From the NCBI GenBank assembly GCA_016186915.1, contig JACPKU010000004.1:3168-67167 (forward strand): a stretch of DNA of 64,000 bases, written 5' to 3'. Positions 4,246 through 58,370 of this stretch are shown here, in pieces. This stretch comes from Candidatus Doudnabacteria bacterium. Its GTDB lineage: Bacteria > Patescibacteriota > Doudnabacteria > UBA920 > O2-02-FULL-48-8. A program made the translations under genes and the position numbers. Under the pieces are notes generated by a model. It made no database searches. It worked only from the letters and a program-made list of their open reading frames with translations, and was not told the origin of the DNA. The first letter of the stretch is position 1. The number at the start of each line of letters is the position of its first letter.

Positions 4246-5114
4246 TGTACTATTACATCGTTGATCCGAAAAATCTAAGTCAACGGCAATTTGAAAGAGT
4301 ACAGAACCAGCTGTACTCTTCTCTTTCTGAATTCAGAATCAGCGGCGAAGTTTCCAGAGTAACCGCGCTCCGGTCTGCGGCTCAGCTGGTTCTGTCAGCC
4401 GAGAGCCATAGAGCGAAAAATATTATTGCGGTAGGAAGTGACGATACACTGCACGACGTAGTTAACGCTGTGCCTGATGATGAAGAAATAACGATTGGGT
4501 TCATCCCTCTTCAACCTTCTAGTTTTGGCAATATGCTGGGCATAAACTCGATATCCAGTGCTGTAAAAACCATAGCCGCCCGCCGCACCATACTGCTTGA
4601 CCTTGGCAGTGTAATACAGACAAAAGTCAACCAGAAAACTTTGTTTTTGAAAAACCTGACTTTTGGCATGGAATTAAAAAGTGATTTAAACAAAGGCAAC
4701 TTATACAGCTTTAAACTTATCAGCCAACTATTTAACCTACCTAACATTGAAGTAAATTTTATAGGCGATAGAAAATTTCAAGGGACAAATACGCTGTTGG
4801 GCGGTGTTGTTTTCAACAGCCGAGATCAAGCATGCGGAAGCAGTTTTGTAAATCCGGCTGACGGCGTGCTTGATGTGCTGCTCCTGCCAAAACTAAGCAA
4901 GTATCAAATTTTCAAATATCGCAAACATCTTTTGAGTGAATGTTTGGAAAACATCCCTGGCGTTTCTATCTTACATTTAAAAAAATTGGAAATTTTAGGA
5001 CCAGAGGGATTGACGCTTCGAGTAGGCACACGCGTATTAGCCAAGGCTCCGGCCACTATCCAAATCGAACCTCGGAAACTTAAAATCATCGCCGGCCGAG
5101 AACGAATGTTTTAA
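4245..5114 (+). CDS. Diacylglycerol/lipid kinase catalytic-domain protein (YegS-like)
   Basis: DAGK_cat-like N-terminus (NIIAVGSDDTLHDVVNAV) and overall length. Confidence 0.5.
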   Translation: MYYYIVDPKNLSQRQFERVQNQLYSSLSEFRISGEVSRVTALRSAAQLVLSAESHRAKNIIAVGSDDTLHDVVNAVPDDEEITIGFIPLQPSSFGNMLGINSISSAVKTIAARRTILLDLGSVIQTKVNQKTLFLKNLTFGMELKSDLNKGNLYSFKLISQLFNLPNIEVNFIGDRKFQGTNTLLGGVVFNSRDQACGSSFVNPADGVLDVLLLPKLSKYQIFKYRKHLLSECLENIPGVSILHLKKLEILGPEGLTLRVGTRVLAKAPATIQIEPRKLKIIAGRERMF

Positions 5115-6293: not shown

Positions 6294-6444
6294 ATGGTGT
6301 TTGTTCTTTAAAATTGTTTTGGTCGCGAAGCGGTGCTGGTTTTAGAATTGAGATAATCGATGCTAGTATCAGCGCTGTTTCCGATGAACGGAACAGTGTT
6401 CCGGCATTGCGGTAGCCAATCCGCAGTGCATTTTAGGAGGAAGG

Positions 6445-7023
6445 ATGGAGTTTAAGAAGTTCATGGTGTCCATCAACGTCAGCGATGACAAGATGGACGA
6501 GCTCGTGCGGGCCGGGTTCCCCACGCAGCGTCCGACGTTCGCGGACATGCGTGCCCGCCGGCTGGCCCATGTCGAAGCGGCAGAATCGATTGGCCGCGAC
6601 GCCTTACGGCTGGACCGCGTCGATGACCTCGGCGAGATCCCTGACAGCGGGCGCGTGGTCTTCACGCGCGAAGGCCAGGAGAAAGTGTCCTTTGCCCAAG
6701 TGGCGAAGGACGCCAAGAAGCTCGGCTTCGCGATGAGCGCGGCCTACGTCGAGAAGGCCCCGGGCAAGTCGGCGCGTCTGCGGATCTGGTGGGAACGCGG
6801 CGAGGAAGCCGTGCCGGTTGAACCGACAGGTGCAATGCGCTTCCACCTGGACGGAATGTTGAAGAGGGCGTATCAGCACCTGTATGCCTTCGACAACCGG
6901 GACACGGATGGGTCGTTCACGTTCAACGCGTCGCACACGATGGACGAGAATGCCCGCCGTGGCGTGCGCGACCTGCGCATCGGGGAAGGCCGCATGGCCT
7001 GCCTCCTGCGCGAGGACGCGTAG
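6445..7023 (+). CDS. Hypothetical protein encoded by a GC-rich, compositionally foreign ORF (192 aa)
   Basis: Strong SD (ggagga) 5 nt upstream of the ATG. Codons end overwhelmingly in G/C (gag ctc gtg cgg gcc ggg ttc ccc acg cag cgt ccg), unlike flanking genes. No recognisable family. Confidence 0.5.
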   Translation: MEFKKFMVSINVSDDKMDELVRAGFPTQRPTFADMRARRLAHVEAAESIGRDALRLDRVDDLGEIPDSGRVVFTREGQEKVSFAQVAKDAKKLGFAMSAAYVEKAPGKSARLRIWWERGEEAVPVEPTGAMRFHLDGMLKRAYQHLYAFDNRDTDGSFTFNASHTMDENARRGVRDLRIGEGRMACLLREDA

Positions 7024-34382: not shown

Positions 34383-35977
34383 ATGCTTACTCCAAACGAT
34401 CGGAGTATCAGGATTAAGCAGGTTTATTCCGAGCTTGATAGAAAATTCGAAGAAGAACGGACCCAAAACCAGGCGCAGAATTTGGGGGTATCTTATATTA
34501 GCCTCTACGGGTTTCCGATTGATCACAATGTCTTGGGCATGATTTCCAAAGAAACCGCAGAGGCTACTGGTGTAATCGCGTTTTATAAGGAAGGGCGAAA
34601 CATTAAACTCGGCGCGCTTAACCCGTCGTCGGAGGTTAATAAGGTAGTTGAAGGTTTAAAGGCCAATAGCTTTTATGTCCAGCTTTATCTGATTTCGCAG
34701 AGCAGTTTTGAACACGCCTTAACTTTTTATAACCGGATTGTGAAAGCAGACAGGAAGTCGCAGGACATAAAGATTGAAGACAAGGTTTCGGAAGTAAAAA
34801 TCAATTCTTTAAAAGAGCTGGCAAATAAATTGTATAACGTGTCAGCCACGGAACTGATCCAGCTGGTTTTGGGATCGGCCCTGCCGGTAGACGCGTCTGA
34901 CATTCATCTAGAGCCGGGCGTTTCCAGCATCAAGGTGCGCTTCCGAATTGATGGCGTGTTGCAGGATGTCGCCACCTTGCCGAAAGATGAGTATCATCAA
35001 TTGGTTTCCCGAATTAAAATTTTGTCAAAACTCAAGTTAAATATAGTGACCAGTCCGCAAGACGGCAGTTTTAGTTTGACTTATAACCAGCAACCGGTGG
35101 ACATTCGCGTGTCTGTTTTGCCTTCGGCTTTCGGTGAGTCTTTCGTGCTTCGGATCTTGCGGCAGGACAAACAGGAGCTGAAGTTTGACGACTTGGGCAT
35201 TAGCGGGCTGGCGCAGAAAAATTTATTGGAACAGATGCGCAAACCCAATGGCATGATTTTAACCACCTGTCCCACTGGCAGCGGCAAGACCAGATTATTA
35301 CCTTGGAAGACCCCGTGGAGTATAGGATTCCAGGAGTCACCCAAACCCCGGTTGATAAAAAGGGAGGGTTAAGCTTTGCTCAGGGCTTGCGCGCTATCGT
35401 CAGGCAAGACCCAGACATTGTGATGGTGGGCGAGATGAGGGATCTAGAAACCGCAGAAACCGCAGCGCAAGCAGCGCTGACTGGACACATTGTGCTGTCC
35501 ACCCTGCATACCAATGACGCGGCTAGCGCCATCCCCAGGCTTTTGGATTTGGGGGTGAAGCCGTTTGTTTTGGCTCCCGCTATCAATGCAGTGATTGGTC
35601 AGCGGTTGGTGCGCCGCATTTGTTCGGCGTGCAAGACAGAATACACGCCGGAAAAAAATTTACTGGCCCGGGCCGAGCTGATTTTAAGCGGAATTTCCAA
35701 AACCGCCAAAGTAAAACTGCCGGCCAAACTGATTTTTTACCACAGTACTGGCTGTGAGGCCTGCAAAGGACTGGGCTACAAAGGCCGGGTGGGCGTATAC
35801 GAGGTATTTGTGGTGAATGAAGCAGTGGAAAAATTGATTCATCAGCAAGCCATTACCACGGAAATAAAAAGGCAAGCGGTAACTGATGGCATGGTGACCA
35901 TGGCGCAAGATGGACTGCTGAAAGCCCTGGCCGGAATCACCGATGTTGAAGAAGTGTTCCGGGTGACCGAGGAATAG
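34383..35977 (+). pseudogene. Type II/IV secretion/pilus ATPase (GspE/PilB family), disrupted by a ~40-nt deletion plus frameshift near 35293
   Basis: ORF 34383..35372 carries the T2SSE N-domain and Walker A (CPTGSGKT), then goes out of frame. ORF 35303..35977 continues with [28 protein letters not shown] and the Cys-tetrad. The segment between GSGKT and [10 protein letters not shown] (normally ~15 aa) is missing. Confidence 0.65.
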
Positions 35978-36163: not shown

Positions 36164-36715
36164 ATGAATGAACACAAATTTAATCCTGAAAAACAACCAG
36201 CCGCGAAAGCCGGTCAAATATTTGATGCTTCCCCTGAAGATGCCAGAGCAATTGCTGTCATCAGAAAACGAGGATGGGAAACCACATATGTAGATGAGGA
36301 GAAAGGAATAACGCGAGCAGATATTGATAGTCGGGGGATGGACGATGAAGACCGAATACAAAGGCACCAAGAGAGATTAAAAGAACCAAGCGAAAACGCG
36401 CATACCTGGGTCGTGAAAGTTGAGAGCCAGGTCGTGGGATTTTGCGAAGCGGTAAGCGGAGATTATAATGAAATTAAAGCAGTTTACATCCTACCAGAAT
36501 TTCAATCACAGGGCCATGGTCAGCAGCTTATGCAACAAGCCATAGAATGGATAGGACGAGATAAGGATATTTATCTGGACGTGGTGGACTTCAATACCCG
36601 AGCCATAGAGCTGTATAAGAGATTAGGTTTTGAGCTGACAGATAAAAGAGAGTTCGTGCAGTTTAAATCGGGCAAATTTATGCAAGTATTGGTAATGATA
36701 AAAAGACATGACTAA
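36164..36715 (+). CDS. GNAT family N-acetyltransferase
   Basis: Acetyl-CoA binding motif region QSQGHGQQLMQQAIEW. Confidence 0.7.
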   Translation: MNEHKFNPEKQPAAKAGQIFDASPEDARAIAVIRKRGWETTYVDEEKGITRADIDSRGMDDEDRIQRHQERLKEPSENAHTWVVKVESQVVGFCEAVSGDYNEIKAVYILPEFQSQGHGQQLMQQAIEWIGRDKDIYLDVVDFNTRAIELYKRLGFELTDKREFVQFKSGKFMQVLVMIKRHD

Positions 36716-37616
36716 GGAATTTCAGAAAAAATTGATTCTGATTGATGGACACGCGTTACTACACCGCGCTTATCACGCCCTTCCGGAAATGAACGGGCCG
36801 GACGGATTCCCCACGGGTGCGATCTTTGGGTTTTTATCAATGCTGTTTAAAGCGCTTGCAGACATTAAGCCTACCCATGCGTTAGTGACTTTTGATGTGC
36901 CCGGGCCGACTTTTCGTGATAAATTGGCCGCGGATTATAAAGCTACTAGAAAACCCACGCCAGATGACCTGACTGCGCAGCTCCCTAAATTGAAGGAAAT
37001 TTTAGAAGCCTTGGAAATTCCCGTCTATGAAAAAGCTGGGTATGAGGCAGATGATTTACTAGGAATCATTTCTCACAAAACCCCTAAGGATGTTTTAAAT
37101 ATTATTGTCACTGGCGATTTGGATATGTTGCAGTTGATTAACAGCAACACCCAAGTTTATCGGTTTAAAATTGGCTTTTCTGACATTCAAGTTTTTGATG
37201 AAAATAAAATGCTGGAGATTTATGGGCTGAAACCTTCGCAGTGGGTGGACTACAAAGCCATTCGAGGCGATACCTCGGACAATATTCCCGGGGTCAAAGG
37301 CATTGGGGAAAAGGGTGCTATGGATTTAATCAAAACCTTTGGCAGTTTGGATGGCGTGTATGCCGCGGCAGAATCAGGCAGCAGTAAGATTAAGCCGGCC
37401 ACTTTGAAAAAATTATTAGCTGACAAAAACAGCGCTTATTTGTCCCAAAAACTGGCGAACATTGATCGAAAAGGTGATTTGTCCGCCGAAGGCGGATCCG
37501 CCTTCGGCGGAGATTTTTACTTTGAACAATGCAAGCTTGGCAACTATAATAAAGACAACGTGATCAAACTCCTGCACGGTCTTGGCATCAAGGCCTTAAC
37601 TAACCGTCTACCCTAA
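36708..37616 (+). CDS. polA: DNA polymerase I, 5'-3' exonuclease (FEN) domain ORF
   Basis: LILIDGHALLHRAYHAL..., the metal-binding acidic clusters, and a helix-hairpin-helix. It ends at a TAA at 37614. Confidence 0.8.
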   Translation: MTKEFQKKLILIDGHALLHRAYHALPEMNGPDGFPTGAIFGFLSMLFKALADIKPTHALVTFDVPGPTFRDKLAADYKATRKPTPDDLTAQLPKLKEILEALEIPVYEKAGYEADDLLGIISHKTPKDVLNIIVTGDLDMLQLINSNTQVYRFKIGFSDIQVFDENKMLEIYGLKPSQWVDYKAIRGDTSDNIPGVKGIGEKGAMDLIKTFGSLDGVYAAAESGSSKIKPATLKKLLADKNSAYLSQKLANIDRKGDLSAEGGSAFGGDFYFEQCKLGNYNKDNVIKLLHGLGIKALTNRLP

Positions 37617-37669
37617 GGTATATTTCACCATCGCGAGCCCCGACGTTACAGTCGGAGCGCGGCAATCCC

Positions 37670-39178
37670 TTGGTGAGATTGCTTCGGCGCAAGCTGCTCG
37701 CAAAGACAAGAACTATGATTATCAAGAACAAAGAACAAGCAATAATCGCAGGCTATCTTCTCAACCCGGGCCAAAGGCATTACCAAGTCGGCGGTCCGGC
37801 ATCTTGGAAGCACTTATTTAGTAAGCTTAGAGTCAAAAAGCTGCTGAAAATATTCGAAGAGATTGAATTGCCACTGATGCCAGTCTTGGCCAAAATGGAA
37901 AAAAGAGGTATTAAACTTGATCTCAAACAGCTGCGACAGTTGAGCAAAAAATTAACCAGCCGGATAGACAAGCTGACCAAACAAATTTATCGCCAAGCCG
38001 GCAAAAAGTTTAATGTTGCTTCTCCGATTCAACTGCGGGATGTGTTGTTTGAGCACTTGAAGATTCCAACAGAAAACTTGCGCAAAACCGGCAAAACCAA
38101 AGCTTTGTCCACGGCGGCCACAGAACTGGAAAAGTTGCGGGAATTGCACCCGATTATTGATTTGATTTTGGAATATCGAGAACTGACCAAGCTGAAATCC
38201 ACTTATGTCGATGCCTTGCCGGAACTGGTGGGGGCGGACGGCAGATTGCATACCAAATACAGTCAGACGGTGGCGGCCACGGGGAGGCTTTCTTCCTCTG
38301 ATCCCAATTTACAAAACATCCCAATTCGTACCGAGCTTGGCAACCAGGTGCGCAAAGCTTTTGTGGCAGAAAAGGGATTTGTCTTAGCTTCTCTGGATTA
38401 TTCCCAAATTGAACTGCGCATTGCCGCCACCTTATCAGGCGATAAAGAAATGATCAAGATTTTCTCCGCCGGAGGCGGATCCGCCTTTGGCGGAAAAGAC
38501 GGCGATTTTCACGCCTCCACCGCTTCGAGAATTTTTGACACTCCTGAGTCAAAAGTAACACCCAGACAGCGCCGGGACGCCAAGACCATCAATTTCAGTG
38601 TGCTTTACGGCGTGTCGGCTTTTGGCTTATCCTCCCGCTCTGAAATGAGCCAAGCCGAGGCCCGGGATTATATCAACAAATATTATGAGGTGTTTAAAGA
38701 TTTAAAAAAATATATAGACACCACAATCAAACAAGCGCATGAAGATGAATTTGTGACTAATCCTTTGGGACGGATCAGAAATTTTGCCGAGATTAATTCG
38801 CCTGTTTATCCAATCCGAGCTGCGGCAGAGCGCGCGGCGTTTAATATGCCGCTCCAATCTTTGGCCGCTGACATCATGAAAATGGCCATGATTCGTATAG
38901 ATGAATTTTTGCAAAATTCATCTATCTCTGATTTAATCTCCCCCTCGGGGGGAGATGCCGCCAAAGGCGACAGAGAGGGGAAAACTGCTGTAAACGACGA
39001 GTGTCGCTTACTCCTGTCAGTGCATGATGAATTGGTGTTTGAAATTAAAAAAGGCAAAGAAAAACAATACTTGCCGAAAATCAAAAAAATTATGGAAACG
39101 GTTTATCAATTATCAGTGCCAGTAACGGTGGATGTAAAAGTGGGAAAGAACTGGATGGAGATGAAAGAATTGGAATAG
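37670..39178 (+). CDS. polA: DNA polymerase I polymerase domain ORF, in a different frame from the upstream exo ORF
   Basis: Pol A motifs DYSQIELRI (motif A), RRDAKTINFSVLYG (motif B) and HDELVFE (motif C). It starts in the vestigial 3'-5' exo region (IIAGYLLNPG). The frame is open back to 37604 and overlaps the upstream ORF end. Confidence 0.8.
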   Translation: MVRLLRRKLLAKTRTMIIKNKEQAIIAGYLLNPGQRHYQVGGPASWKHLFSKLRVKKLLKIFEEIELPLMPVLAKMEKRGIKLDLKQLRQLSKKLTSRIDKLTKQIYRQAGKKFNVASPIQLRDVLFEHLKIPTENLRKTGKTKALSTAATELEKLRELHPIIDLILEYRELTKLKSTYVDALPELVGADGRLHTKYSQTVAATGRLSSSDPNLQNIPIRTELGNQVRKAFVAEKGFVLASLDYSQIELRIAATLSGDKEMIKIFSAGGGSAFGGKDGDFHASTASRIFDTPESKVTPRQRRDAKTINFSVLYGVSAFGLSSRSEMSQAEARDYINKYYEVFKDLKKYIDTTIKQAHEDEFVTNPLGRIRNFAEINSPVYPIRAAAERAAFNMPLQSLAADIMKMAMIRIDEFLQNSSISDLISPSGGDAAKGDREGKTAVNDECRLLLSVHDELVFEIKKGKEKQYLPKIKKIMETVYQLSVPVTVDVKVGKNWMEMKELE

Positions 39179-54322: not shown

Positions 54323-56968
<2,646 letters not shown>

Positions 56969-57189: not shown

Positions 57190-58299
57190 TCAGGCAAGAG
57201 CAAGGTTCGGGTCAGCGACGAATGTCTTAGTGGGTAGTTTGCTCCGACGCTTCGGTCGGAGTCTCGACCTGACAATTTCAGCGTCGGGATAGTGGGTAGT
57301 GAGTAGTTTGTAATGAGCAGCAAGACCAATCATTGCGGCATTGTCTGTGCAGTATTTAAGCGGGGGGATACTGACTGAGAGCTGATAGCTCTTAGCTAAT
57401 AGCTTATAGCGAGCACGCAGGAGGTCGTTGGCTGCAACACCACCGCCGAGCATAATAGTTTTGGGTTGGTATTTTTTAATCGCTTGTTCTGTTTTGGCAA
57501 TCAGGACATCCACGATGGCTTGCTGGACGGAGGCGGCTAAGTTAGCTTTTAGCTTCCCTCTCTGTCCATTCCCGCGAAAGCGGGAATCTAATTTTTGGAC
57601 CTCATATAAAACAGCGGTTTTGAGTCCGGAAAAACTGAAATTTAAATCATCAGAATTAATCATCGGACGAGGAAACTTAAAAGCATGAGGATTGCCGTTT
57701 TTTGCAAGCTTGCTTAAATGCGGCCCACCAGGATATGGTAGTCCCAACAGTCTTGCGGTTTTATCAAATGCCTCGCCTGCAGCATCATCTACGGTTTCGC
57801 CAATGATTTTGTATTGCCCGTGTCCTCGCATCAGTACTAACATAGTATGCCCGCCGGAGACAATCAAGATAATCGCGGGAAATTTGACCCTTCGACTACG
57901 CTCAGGGATCAAACTTTTATGTTGCCTGAGCTTGTCGAAGGCAACGTTGGCATAGATGTGCGCCTCGAGATGATTAATCGGTAAAACCGGTTTGTTCAAG
58001 GTTAAGCCTAAAGTTTTGGCAGTGTCTACGCCCACCATAAGAGACGTCATCAGCCCTGGCCCTTTTGTTACTGCGATATAGTCAATTTCCGCAAGTTTGG
58101 TTTTGGCTTTCTTGAGGGCCAGGTTAATGGTTGGGATGATAGAAAGGACGTGTTCTCTGGCTGCCACTTCCGGCACTACCCCGCCGTATTTCAGGTGGGT
58201 CTTGGCCTGCGAGGCCAAGATATTGGATTTGATTTGGCCGTTAACGATTATGGCTGCGCCAGTTTCATCACAACTGGTTTCAAGGGCGAGTATTGTCAT
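57190..58299 (-). CDS. tsaD: tRNA N6-adenosine threonylcarbamoyltransferase TsaD (Kae1/Gcp)
   Basis: MTILALETSCDETGAAI, the His-His metal motif region, and SGGVAAN. It carries an internal repeat-derived insertion and a C-terminal extension. Confidence 0.9.
   Translation of the reverse strand: MTILALETSCDETGAAIIVNGQIKSNILASQAKTHLKYGGVVPEVAAREHVLSIIPTINLALKKAKTKLAEIDYIAVTKGPGLMTSLMVGVDTAKTLGLTLNKPVLPINHLEAHIYANVAFDKLRQHKSLIPERSRRVKFPAIILIVSGGHTMLVLMRGHGQYKIIGETVDDAAGEAFDKTARLLGLPYPGGPHLSKLAKNGNPHAFKFPRPMINSDDLNFSFSGLKTAVLYEVQKLDSRFRGNGQRGKLKANLAASVQQAIVDVLIAKTEQAIKKYQPKTIMLGGGVAANDLLRARYKLLAKSYQLSVSIPPLKYCTDNAAMIGLAAHYKLLTTHYPDAEIVRSRLRPKRRSKLPTKTFVADPNLALA
57901..57942. repeat. ~42-bp hairpin repeat, copy II (in frame inside tsaD)
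   Basis: ctcagggatcaaacttttatgttgcctgagcttgtcgaaggc. The minus strand encodes FDKLRQHKSLIPER. Confidence 0.7.
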
Positions 58300-58370
58300 A
58301 ATCTAAAGTATAACTTTTTTTAGTCAACAAAAAAAGCCTCGAACATCGAGGCCTTTTAAGTGATCAGCTT

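Follow-up and report, generated by a model that had tools for sequence, protein, structure and literature searches.

The window analysed here comprises 64,000 nucleotides (nt) of contig JACPKU010000004.1 (positions 3,168 to 67,167; assembly GCA_016186915.1) from a Candidatus Doudnabacteria bacterium and contains a DNA polymerase I gene, polA, that carries three GC-rich palindromes, referred to below as elements (i), (ii) and (iii). How do such sequences come to lie inside the gene of a conserved enzyme, and what allows them to be kept there? A first-pass annotation, made from the sequence alone, took all three for one family and likened them to the palindromic elements that colonise protein-coding genes of Rickettsia (RPEs). 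We propose that elements (i) and (ii), together with a further copy located in the valS gene, probably constitute a family of 30-nt non-autonomous insertion elements, and that element (iii) has to be treated separately.

Palindromic Elements of the Window

Elements (i) and (ii) were found at exactly the positions, and with exactly the sequences, first assigned to them (37483-37510 and 38466-38493). When the flanking T and A are added, both become 30-nt units of the form TCCGCC-NNA-GGCGGA followed by TCCGCC-TNN-GGCGGA (Table 1). Copy 1 is a perfect palindrome over all 30 nt and its product is SAEGGSAFGG, residues 259-268 of the open reading frame (ORF) for the 5′-3′ exonuclease; copy 2, a palindrome with two G·T positions, specifies SAGGGSAFGG, residues 251-260 of the polymerase ORF. 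The hairpin ATCTCCCCCTCGGGGGGAGAT of element (iii) lies 2 nt lower than stated, at 38936-38956 instead of 38938-38958. All three palindromes preserve the reading frame, as had been claimed, (i) in the exonuclease ORF and (ii) and (iii) in the polymerase ORF.

The 12-nt core GGCGGATCCGCC has two exact matches in the window, those in copies 1 and 2, versus 0.08 expected from shuffles. A mismatch-tolerant scan detected a third copy, inside valS, which the first-pass annotation had not included. It has three mismatches, two of which compensate each other, and zero matches with seven or fewer mismatches to the 30-nt element were obtained in 30 shuffled windows. The valS gene is on the minus strand, and its copy is in another frame, being read as APEAHPPWTD directly after SGYF. 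Perfect GC-rich hairpins with a stem of at least 8 bp are frequent in the window as a whole (11 versus 0-2, mean 0.7, in ten shuffles).

Table 1. Coordinates of the palindromic elements of the window and of the genes that house them.
Feature	Coordinates	Strand	Description
Copy 1, element (i)	37482-37511	.	TCCGCCgaaGGCGGA then TCCGCCttcGGCGGA, i.e., TCCGCC-GAA-GGCGGA then TCCGCC-TTC-GGCGGA
Copy 2, element (ii)	38465-38494	.	TCCGCCggaGGCGGA then TCCGCCtttGGCGGA, i.e., TCCGCC-GGA-GGCGGA then TCCGCC-TTT-GGCGGA
Copy 3, degenerate, inside valS	56862-56891		plus-strand letters TCCGTCcaaGGCGGA then TGCGCCtctGGCGCA, i.e., TCCGTC-CAA-GGCGGA then TGCGCC-TCT-GGCGCA
Element (iii) region	38936-38980	+	hairpin ATCTCCCCC-tcg-GGGGGAGAT (21 nt), hairpin GCCGCC-aaa-GGCGAC (15 nt), tail AGAGAGGGG
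polA, 5′-3′ exonuclease part	36708-37616	+	302 amino acids (aa); PF02739, PF01367
Exonuclease-polymerase gap	37617-37714	+	98 nt, GC-rich; imperfect palindrome; stop codon and frame change
polA, polymerase part	37715-39178	+	487 aa; 100% identical to P0001, Candidatus Doudnabacteria
valS	54323-56968	-	881 aa
Composite palindrome in valS	54691-54770	-	80 nt, in frame; outer C6/G6 stem around two 10-bp hairpins; encodes PPQSPLILRGDKTAATPPLKIRGGRGE

Insertion Sites and Target Motif

An alignment of PolA orthologues had been suggested as the way to define the indels precisely, and both the alignment and pairs of filled and empty sites revealed clean insertions. Among 19 aligned PolA sequences, only the window protein and homologues P0002 and P0003 have element (ii), as an insertion of nine alignment columns. 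Relative to Klentaq, it corresponds to a 9-residue gap between Taq G635 and R636, in agreement with the initial estimate of about nine residues absent from Taq; the position is in the fingers subdomain. Copy 1 is an exact insertion of 10 aa compared to most orthologues. In a set of 120 listed PolA homologues, the SAxGGSAxGG peptide is present at site (i) in six other proteins (P0016 has a degenerate form and P0006 half a unit), at site (ii) in P0002, P0003 and P0016, and at other sites in two more. The possibility, raised in the first-pass annotation, that relatives encode the same peptide by non-palindromic DNA was not borne out: wherever the peptide was present and the DNA could be read, the DNA was palindromic, with P0006 containing a single 15-nt half unit.

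Boundaries of the insertions were determined by comparing genomic stretches with filled and empty sites. At polA site (ii), the comparison of L138 with L139 (proteins 90% identical) gives ATT TTT^(30 nt)^AAA, and at polA site (i), the comparison of L140 with L141 (88% identical) gives TTG^(30 nt)^GAT versus TTA GAA. Homologues of valS without the insert read GYF followed by NPD (TAY TTY AAY). The filled valS genes of L032 and L144 read TT(C/T)^(30 nt)^AAT (TTC^AAT in L032), while those of the window and L142 read TT^(30 nt)^(C/T) AAT; in the latter the insertion is 1 nt upstream, which accounts for the different reading frame. This site is also filled, in two reading frames, in ValRS of other members of the Candidate Phyla Radiation (CPR). 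Exactly 30 extra nt were present in each of four filled/empty comparisons (polA sites (i) and (ii), valS of L032 and valS of the window), and no target-site duplication was seen in any of the four.

Further copies were retrieved from species-representative genomes with the pattern CCGCC-NNN-GGCGG-AT-CCGCC-NNN-GGCGG, which matched at least 124 copies in at least 119 stretches; the counts below refer to the copies and matches listed. In the flanks of 130 copies, taken on both sides, position −2 is T in 80-87% of cases, and a pyrimidine occupies position −1 in about 80%. These flanks describe a target of roughly TTN^RAN, i.e., a T-rich/A-rich junction.

Reading Frame and Host Proteins

Seventy-three of the 124 copies are located in ORFs of at least 600 nt. 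The frame SAxGGSAxGG is used by 62 of them, RRRIRLRR by six and PPxADPPxAE by five. TTYRAA motifs of the same long ORFs are distributed over the three phases as 45/11/44%, so target preference cannot account for the frame bias (P = 2e-12 against that distribution), the simplest reading of which is selection acting via translation. Most variants of the 30-nt element contain no stop codon, and those in which a stop codon interrupts the SAxGG frame on both strands were found outside long ORFs only. If translated, the inserts are predicted to yield peptides that span ...DLSAEGGSAFGGDF... and ...IFSAGGGSAFGGK....

The frame data bear directly on the idea that the 30 nt are never translated, being either cut from the mRNA or bypassed by the ribosome. 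There is a precedent in the GC-rich bypass elements of Magnusiomyces mitochondria, and a stable hairpin inside a coding sequence would be in line with such a process. However, a preference for one frame out of three is inexplicable if the insert is skipped, and the confinement of SAxGG-frame stop variants to DNA outside long ORFs likewise argues against skipping. We therefore consider this explanation very improbable.

The hosts are, for the most part, essential enzymes. They include RpoB, RpoC, DnaE, DnaG, GyrA, PolX, UvrB, UvrC, Mfd, HsdR, PheT (two copies), ValRS, CysRS, tRNA synthetases of the Asp/Asn/Lys type, AtpD, DnaJ (in the Gly/Phe region), the linker of an E2 acyltransferase, a MurC-type ligase and CtpA (two copies); the copies occupy unrelated positions of unrelated genes, and some are intergenic. 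In three MAGs (metagenome-assembled genomes) of Ignavibacteria (L031, L045 and L075), the element occupies one common C-terminal position, directly ahead of a ...SG[VI]YFY... motif that resembles a type IX secretion sorting domain, though Pfam called none in L031.

Structure prediction had been proposed as a means to see whether the inserts are surface loops. The AlphaFold2 models of the two window proteins have high confidence overall (mean pLDDT 91.2 and 89.7), and pLDDT falls below 50 at residues 254-259 (inside insert (ii)), 412-419 (inside insert (iii)) and 260-267 (inside insert (i)) only. In these models, all three inserts are low-confidence surface loops, where the peptide would be tolerated as a disordered linker.

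Double-Hairpin Structure and Covariation

The element consists of two tandem 15-nt units, each with a 6-bp GC stem and a 3-nt loop, and the pair of units is itself palindromic. The consensus, TCCGCC-RRA-GGCGGA then TCCGCC-TYY-GGCGGA, is two-fold symmetric with GGATCC/GATC at its centre. Among 77 distinct sequences, which were retrieved by similarity to a palindromic consensus and are not independent, 95.9% of cells are paired in the two-hairpin structure and 8 of the 12 pairs vary on both sides. Both-sided changes number 22, versus 2.3 ± 1.4 in shuffles, none of 500 shuffles reaching this value. For a single long hairpin, the number is 26 versus 20.4 ± 7.5 (153 of 500 shuffles), and the changes are mostly at variable loop positions. 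The variant stems CCCTCC/GGAGGG, CTCGCC/GGCGAG, TGCGCC/GGCGCA, TCAGCC/GGCTGA and TCCCCC/GGGGGA leave the small hairpins intact and break the long one. Thus, covariation supports two tandem 6-bp triloop hairpins over one long hairpin; the latter, with 14 bp, was rejected as the relevant structure on these grounds, though it is the minimum-energy fold of perfect copies.

Loop positions are not fixed by the search pattern. In the listed copies, loop 1 ends with A in 94% of cases and loop 2 begins with T in 95%; variation is confined to the two middle positions of the loops, mostly as purine/purine versus pyrimidine/pyrimidine, and the two loops are fully complementary in just 24 of 121 copies. 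No Rfam family was matched by elements (i) and (ii) at an E-value of 1 or below over positions 37400-39100, where the sole match, Whalefall-1, is to element (iii).

Conserved structure can also be viewed as a sign that the element serves its host, either as a parS-like site for a dimeric DNA-binding protein or as a structured mRNA motif, selected for and tolerated in coding sequence. The covariation that preserves two hairpins, the two-fold symmetry with its GGATCC/GATC centre, the near-identical sequence of few copies across phyla and a rate of change below that of synonymous sites in host genes are all consistent with this. Compensatory changes can, however, arise without selection, through template-switch correction of quasi-palindromes. 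Pairs of relatives with 88-90% identical proteins include one with the element and one without it at the same site, copies are found at unrelated positions of unrelated genes and in intergenic DNA, degenerate copies exist, and Rfam offers no match. A host function of this kind is, in our estimate, unlikely, though copies are few, nearly identical across phyla and, where old, slow to change, which keeps it in play.

Age and Inheritance of the Copies

Carriers are dispersed over a neighbour-joining tree of 73 Doudnabacteria polymerase domains, and each has close non-carriers as neighbours, a pattern that may reflect recurrent independent insertion. The site-(i) copy of L138 is 6 nt downstream of the position occupied in the window and in L140, and is the hybrid variant TCCGCC-gaa-GGCGGA followed by CCAGCC-tct-GGCTGG. 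Copy (ii) is identical at 30 of 30 positions in the window and L121, while the polymerase proteins are 72% identical and their genes have 52% third-position identity at identical amino acids. It follows that the element either postdates the split of its hosts or has been kept constant in nucleotide sequence. In valS, the compensated stem TGCGCC/GGCGCA is common to the copies of the window and L142, which are identical at 27 of 30 positions and keep 11 of 12 pairs, indicating that this copy is older and was inherited. Two copies in one gene are found, apart from polA of the window, in PheT of L016 (at 5846 and 6866) and in the CtpA peptidase of L059 (at 2126 and 2921); such clustering may be due to local hopping or to several tolerant loops with TTN^RAN in one gene.

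Might every site have been filled just once, in a distant ancestor, with vertical inheritance, many precise losses and an end to mobility since? The valS copy in the PPxAD frame, which has TGCGCC/GGCGCA in the window and L142 and is degraded in other Parcubacteria, conforms to such a history, and so does copy (ii), common to the sisters P0001 and P0003. The PolA tree would, however, require many independent exact losses, and there are no flanking direct repeats to drive precise deletion. Two frames at the valS site, positions 6 nt apart at polA site (i) and perfect copies in genes with synonymous sites near saturation also disagree with a single ancient event per site, which makes this history quite improbable.

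Distribution across Genomes

All listed matches come from MAGs, with 1-4 stretches per assembly. By their deposited labels, which are unchecked, the carriers belong to many CPR classes, Omnitrophota, Kiritimatiellae, Verrucomicrobia, Lentisphaerae, Planctomycetes, Ignavibacteria, Bacteroidota, Chloroflexota, Desulfotomaculaceae, Firestonebacteria and Margulisiibacteriota, and include MAGs labelled Gammaproteobacteria.

The exclusive occurrence in MAGs, and the designed look of a sequence with a BamHI site at its centre, could point to an assembly or library artefact, such as a palindromic linker or adapter. Contig naming, however, indicates many laboratories and assemblers (MEGAHIT, SPAdes, Banfield-laboratory and MFD MAGs, the last presumably derived from long reads), and orthologous sites are filled in independent MAGs with diverged flanks. 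Neither the frame bias nor the compensated degenerate copies nor the unbroken flanking codons are expected of an artefact, an explanation to which we attach practically no credence.

Two pattern matches were present in the 2.9 million viral contigs of IMG/VR, and a 36-mer query returned zero matches in PLSDB plasmids, INPHARED phages and 5,426 E. coli genomes. From the IMG/VR, PLSDB and INPHARED results, phages and plasmids were rejected as carriers. An all-against-all BLAST of 1,417 ORFs from the 119 listed loci (8-kb stretches), aimed at a linked mobilising gene, revealed no family present in more than five loci; the most recurrent protein families near copies are ordinary housekeeping proteins.

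In MAGs of Kiritimatiellae and Verrucomicrobia (L006, at 4569-4752 and 6390-6572, as well as L003, L029 and L053), the palindrome is located inside an intergenic repeat of about 185 nt that starts directly after a stop codon. The Kiritimatiellae copies were considered as ends of a larger element, which was rejected, the palindrome merely lying within this repeat. A reverse-transcriptase gene (RVT_1; L144, 2949-3466) is found, in convergent orientation, directly downstream of the element-carrying valS of a Doudnabacteria MAG.

Proposed Mode of Movement

Under the insertion-element proposal, the element would enter DNA as an exact 30-nt block at TTN^RAN, without duplication of target bases. Genic copies would persist nearly only in the Ser-Ala-x-Gly-Gly-Ser-Ala-x-Gly-Gly frame and in surface loops of large conserved proteins, i.e., where translation is harmless and a flexible Gly/Ser/Ala linker can be tolerated. 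Since the element contains no gene and has no recurrent neighbour gene, the mobilising enzyme would have to act in trans. Two hairpins, the lack of target duplication and a short motif resemble single-strand transposition of the HUH/Y1 type, and a transposase of this type that recognises single-stranded DNA hairpins might be responsible; since the symmetry and the 30-nt size fit no known family, the enzyme type is only a guess. We tentatively entertain a stronger version, in which an active "nano" element of 30 nt, with two triloop hairpins and a TTN^RAN target, is spreading among uncultivated bacteria of many phyla, duplicating no target bases and repeatedly hitting the same loops of essential genes; it would be moved by an enzyme that is widely shared, perhaps part of the core set, and works on single-stranded DNA hairpins.

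Several observations weigh against mobility. The approximately 1-5 perfect copies per genome among the matches listed are unusually few for a transposable element, and a 30-nt parasite would not readily be expected to stay nearly identical across phyla unless its enzyme were very widespread or a conserved one of the hosts. No mobilising enzyme, transposase or tnpA was found near any copy within the 8-kb stretches. A metagenome scan for empty and filled polA site (i), performed with AAAGGTGATTTG-N{0,30}-GATTTTTACTTTGAA, returned only 12 chance matches in gut contigs and thus no within-population polymorphism of filled versus empty sites. At polA site (ii), one neighbouring codon is missing and the net gain is 27 nt, so the event there was not a pure insertion. 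Old valS copies retain their hairpins and change more slowly than synonymous sites; such slow evolution could mean constraint in place, i.e., a function for the host. Finally, the stems were fixed by the search pattern, and stem conservation among the 124 copies is therefore partly an effect of retrieval.

Relation to Known Elements

RPEs, of which RPE-1 to RPE-8 were reportedly described by Ogata et al. in 2000, are about 100-150 nt long, confined to Rickettsia and present in many copies per genome. The resemblance noted at the outset consists of in-frame palindromic insertions into conserved coding genes that add a surface peptide, leave the gene intact and have no linked transposase. The present element is 30 nt long with two hairpins, has few copies per genome and is nearly unchanged in many phyla, which sets it apart from RPEs as they are described. 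The analogy with RPEs holds, but membership in that family is not supported. The small dispersed repeats of heterocystous cyanobacteria, said to be treated by Elhai et al. in 2008 under the title "Very small mobile repeated elements", are likewise palindromic, mobile-looking units (about 21-27 nt) that occur in many contexts. They differ in sequence, belong to one order and are mostly non-coding or nested in repeats, and we know of no report of frame-selected coding copies of them in essential genes.

The mitochondrial GC clusters, double-hairpin elements and repetitive hairpin-forming elements of fungi, sponges and Volvox are short, GC-rich hairpins or double hairpins that spread in compact, AT-richer genomes; AT-rich sites are their preferred targets, and some insertions keep the frame of a coding gene. 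They are organellar, each family is lineage-specific, their sequences are unrelated to the present one and some are bypassed rather than translated.

REP sequences and REPINs are mobilised by RAYT (HUH/Y1) transposases (PMC3116915, PMC3733652). They resemble the 30-nt element in being GC-rich palindromes of 20-40 nt with hairpin pairs as the replicating unit, and, by analogy, recognition of single-stranded DNA hairpins would be a plausible model for the movement of the latter. REPs, however, carry a GTAG or CGTC tag, are extragenic and species-specific, and reach tens to hundreds of copies per genome. Here, the ends are TCCGCC and GGCGGA with T-rich/A-rich flanks, the majority of listed copies (73/124) are within ORFs of at least 600 nt, and 1-4 stretches were listed per assembly. 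A classical MITE is a poor match too, as there are just two inverted 15-mers and no target duplication in four comparisons. With IS200/IS605 elements and their hairpin-only derivatives, the 30-nt element has in common hairpins at both ends, the lack of target duplication and a short specific adjacent motif (here TTN^RAN). Asymmetry, strand specificity and a length of at least about 70-100 nt characterise those elements, whereas the present one is a symmetric 30-mer, and no tnpA was found within the 8-kb stretches. A literature search by sequence, peptide and concept, with subscription journals outside its coverage, found no description of the 30-nt element.

Element (iii) and Other C-run/G-run Hairpins

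The region of element (iii) encodes ISPSGGDAAKGDREG and is within about 26 residues that are extra to Taq (compared with Klentaq, between Taq positions of about 770 and 777), close to the 25 or so first estimated; the loop precedes the strand bearing D785. Element (iii) is common to L120 and L123, whose changes preserve the second hairpin. The 80-nt composite palindrome in valS has a predicted fold of −23.4 kcal/mol (z = −5.0), and a motif search of the other 119 listed ValRS homologues found none with this composite. Element (iii) belongs, together with the valS composite, to a separate family of C-run/G-run hairpins, and the initial grouping of all three polA palindromes as one family is not upheld.

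The Rfam model Whalefall-1 (RF01762) has a full-length match at 38934-38982 with 18.7 bits and another full-length match at 4317-4355 of L124 with 23.5 bits, both below the gathering score of 37. Whalefall-1 is a non-coding RNA motif known from whale-fall metagenomes only (Weinberg et al. 2010, PMC2864571). It resembles element (iii) in its C-rich/G-rich first hairpin, a second hairpin, an AGRGAGGGA-type tail and an occurrence in uncultivated bacteria only. It differs in having been described as a non-coding RNA, whereas element (iii), with its score below gathering, is in frame inside polA. The match is a lead rather than evidence of membership; the metagenome-only "sRNA" Whalefall-1 may itself be a relative of in-gene hairpin elements.

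The window polA is further distinguished by its division into two ORFs, with the 98-nt gap between them; most orthologues are fused and about 760 aa long. The equivalent gap of L120 (9835-10000) is crowded with C-run/G-run palindromes, and invasion by palindromic elements may have caused the split of polA in this clade. The homologues P0002, P0003, P0004, P0005 and P0008 are likewise without the exonuclease part, some of them on short contigs. In L122 (14017-16350), the uvrB call covers just 414 aa at the C-terminal end, and the uncalled stretch upstream of it contains hairpins of the C-run/G-run kind, with CCCCCTCTTAtccTAAGAGGGGG (15368) and CCCCCCTTGGAACAAGGGGGG (15408); the gene, or its call, may have been disrupted by palindromic inserts.

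Two other features of the window were observed. The gene for a PilB/GspE-type secretion ATPase (34383-35977) is broken into two overlapping ORFs, with only about 11 nt from Walker-A GSGKT to EDPVEY and a change of frame between them, and looks like a pseudogene formed by deletion and frameshift or like an assembly error. An 8-bp-stem palindrome, ATTCCCGCgaaaGCGGGAAT, is present at 57568-57587 within the ORF 57190-58302; its ATTCCC-N8-GGGAAT shape is that of the Neisseria dRS3 repeat, probably by coincidence.

Implications

If the 30-nt element is mobile, the known size limit of transposable DNA in bacteria drops to 30 nt, in lineages considered poor in mobile elements; were it also active and spreading as suggested above, few mobile DNAs known in bacteria would be as small or as widely distributed. 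Its insertions would account for many short Gly/Ser/Ala inserts in RNA polymerase, DNA polymerases, tRNA synthetases and ATP synthase of MAGs, and would provide a natural map of insertion-tolerant loops in essential enzymes as well as a way to trace genetic exchange across phyla in communities of groundwater and sediment. A warning follows for structured RNA motifs known from metagenomes only, some of which may be such elements. An enzyme that mobilises the element would have to recognise both 6-bp triloop hairpins and the TTN^RAN target.

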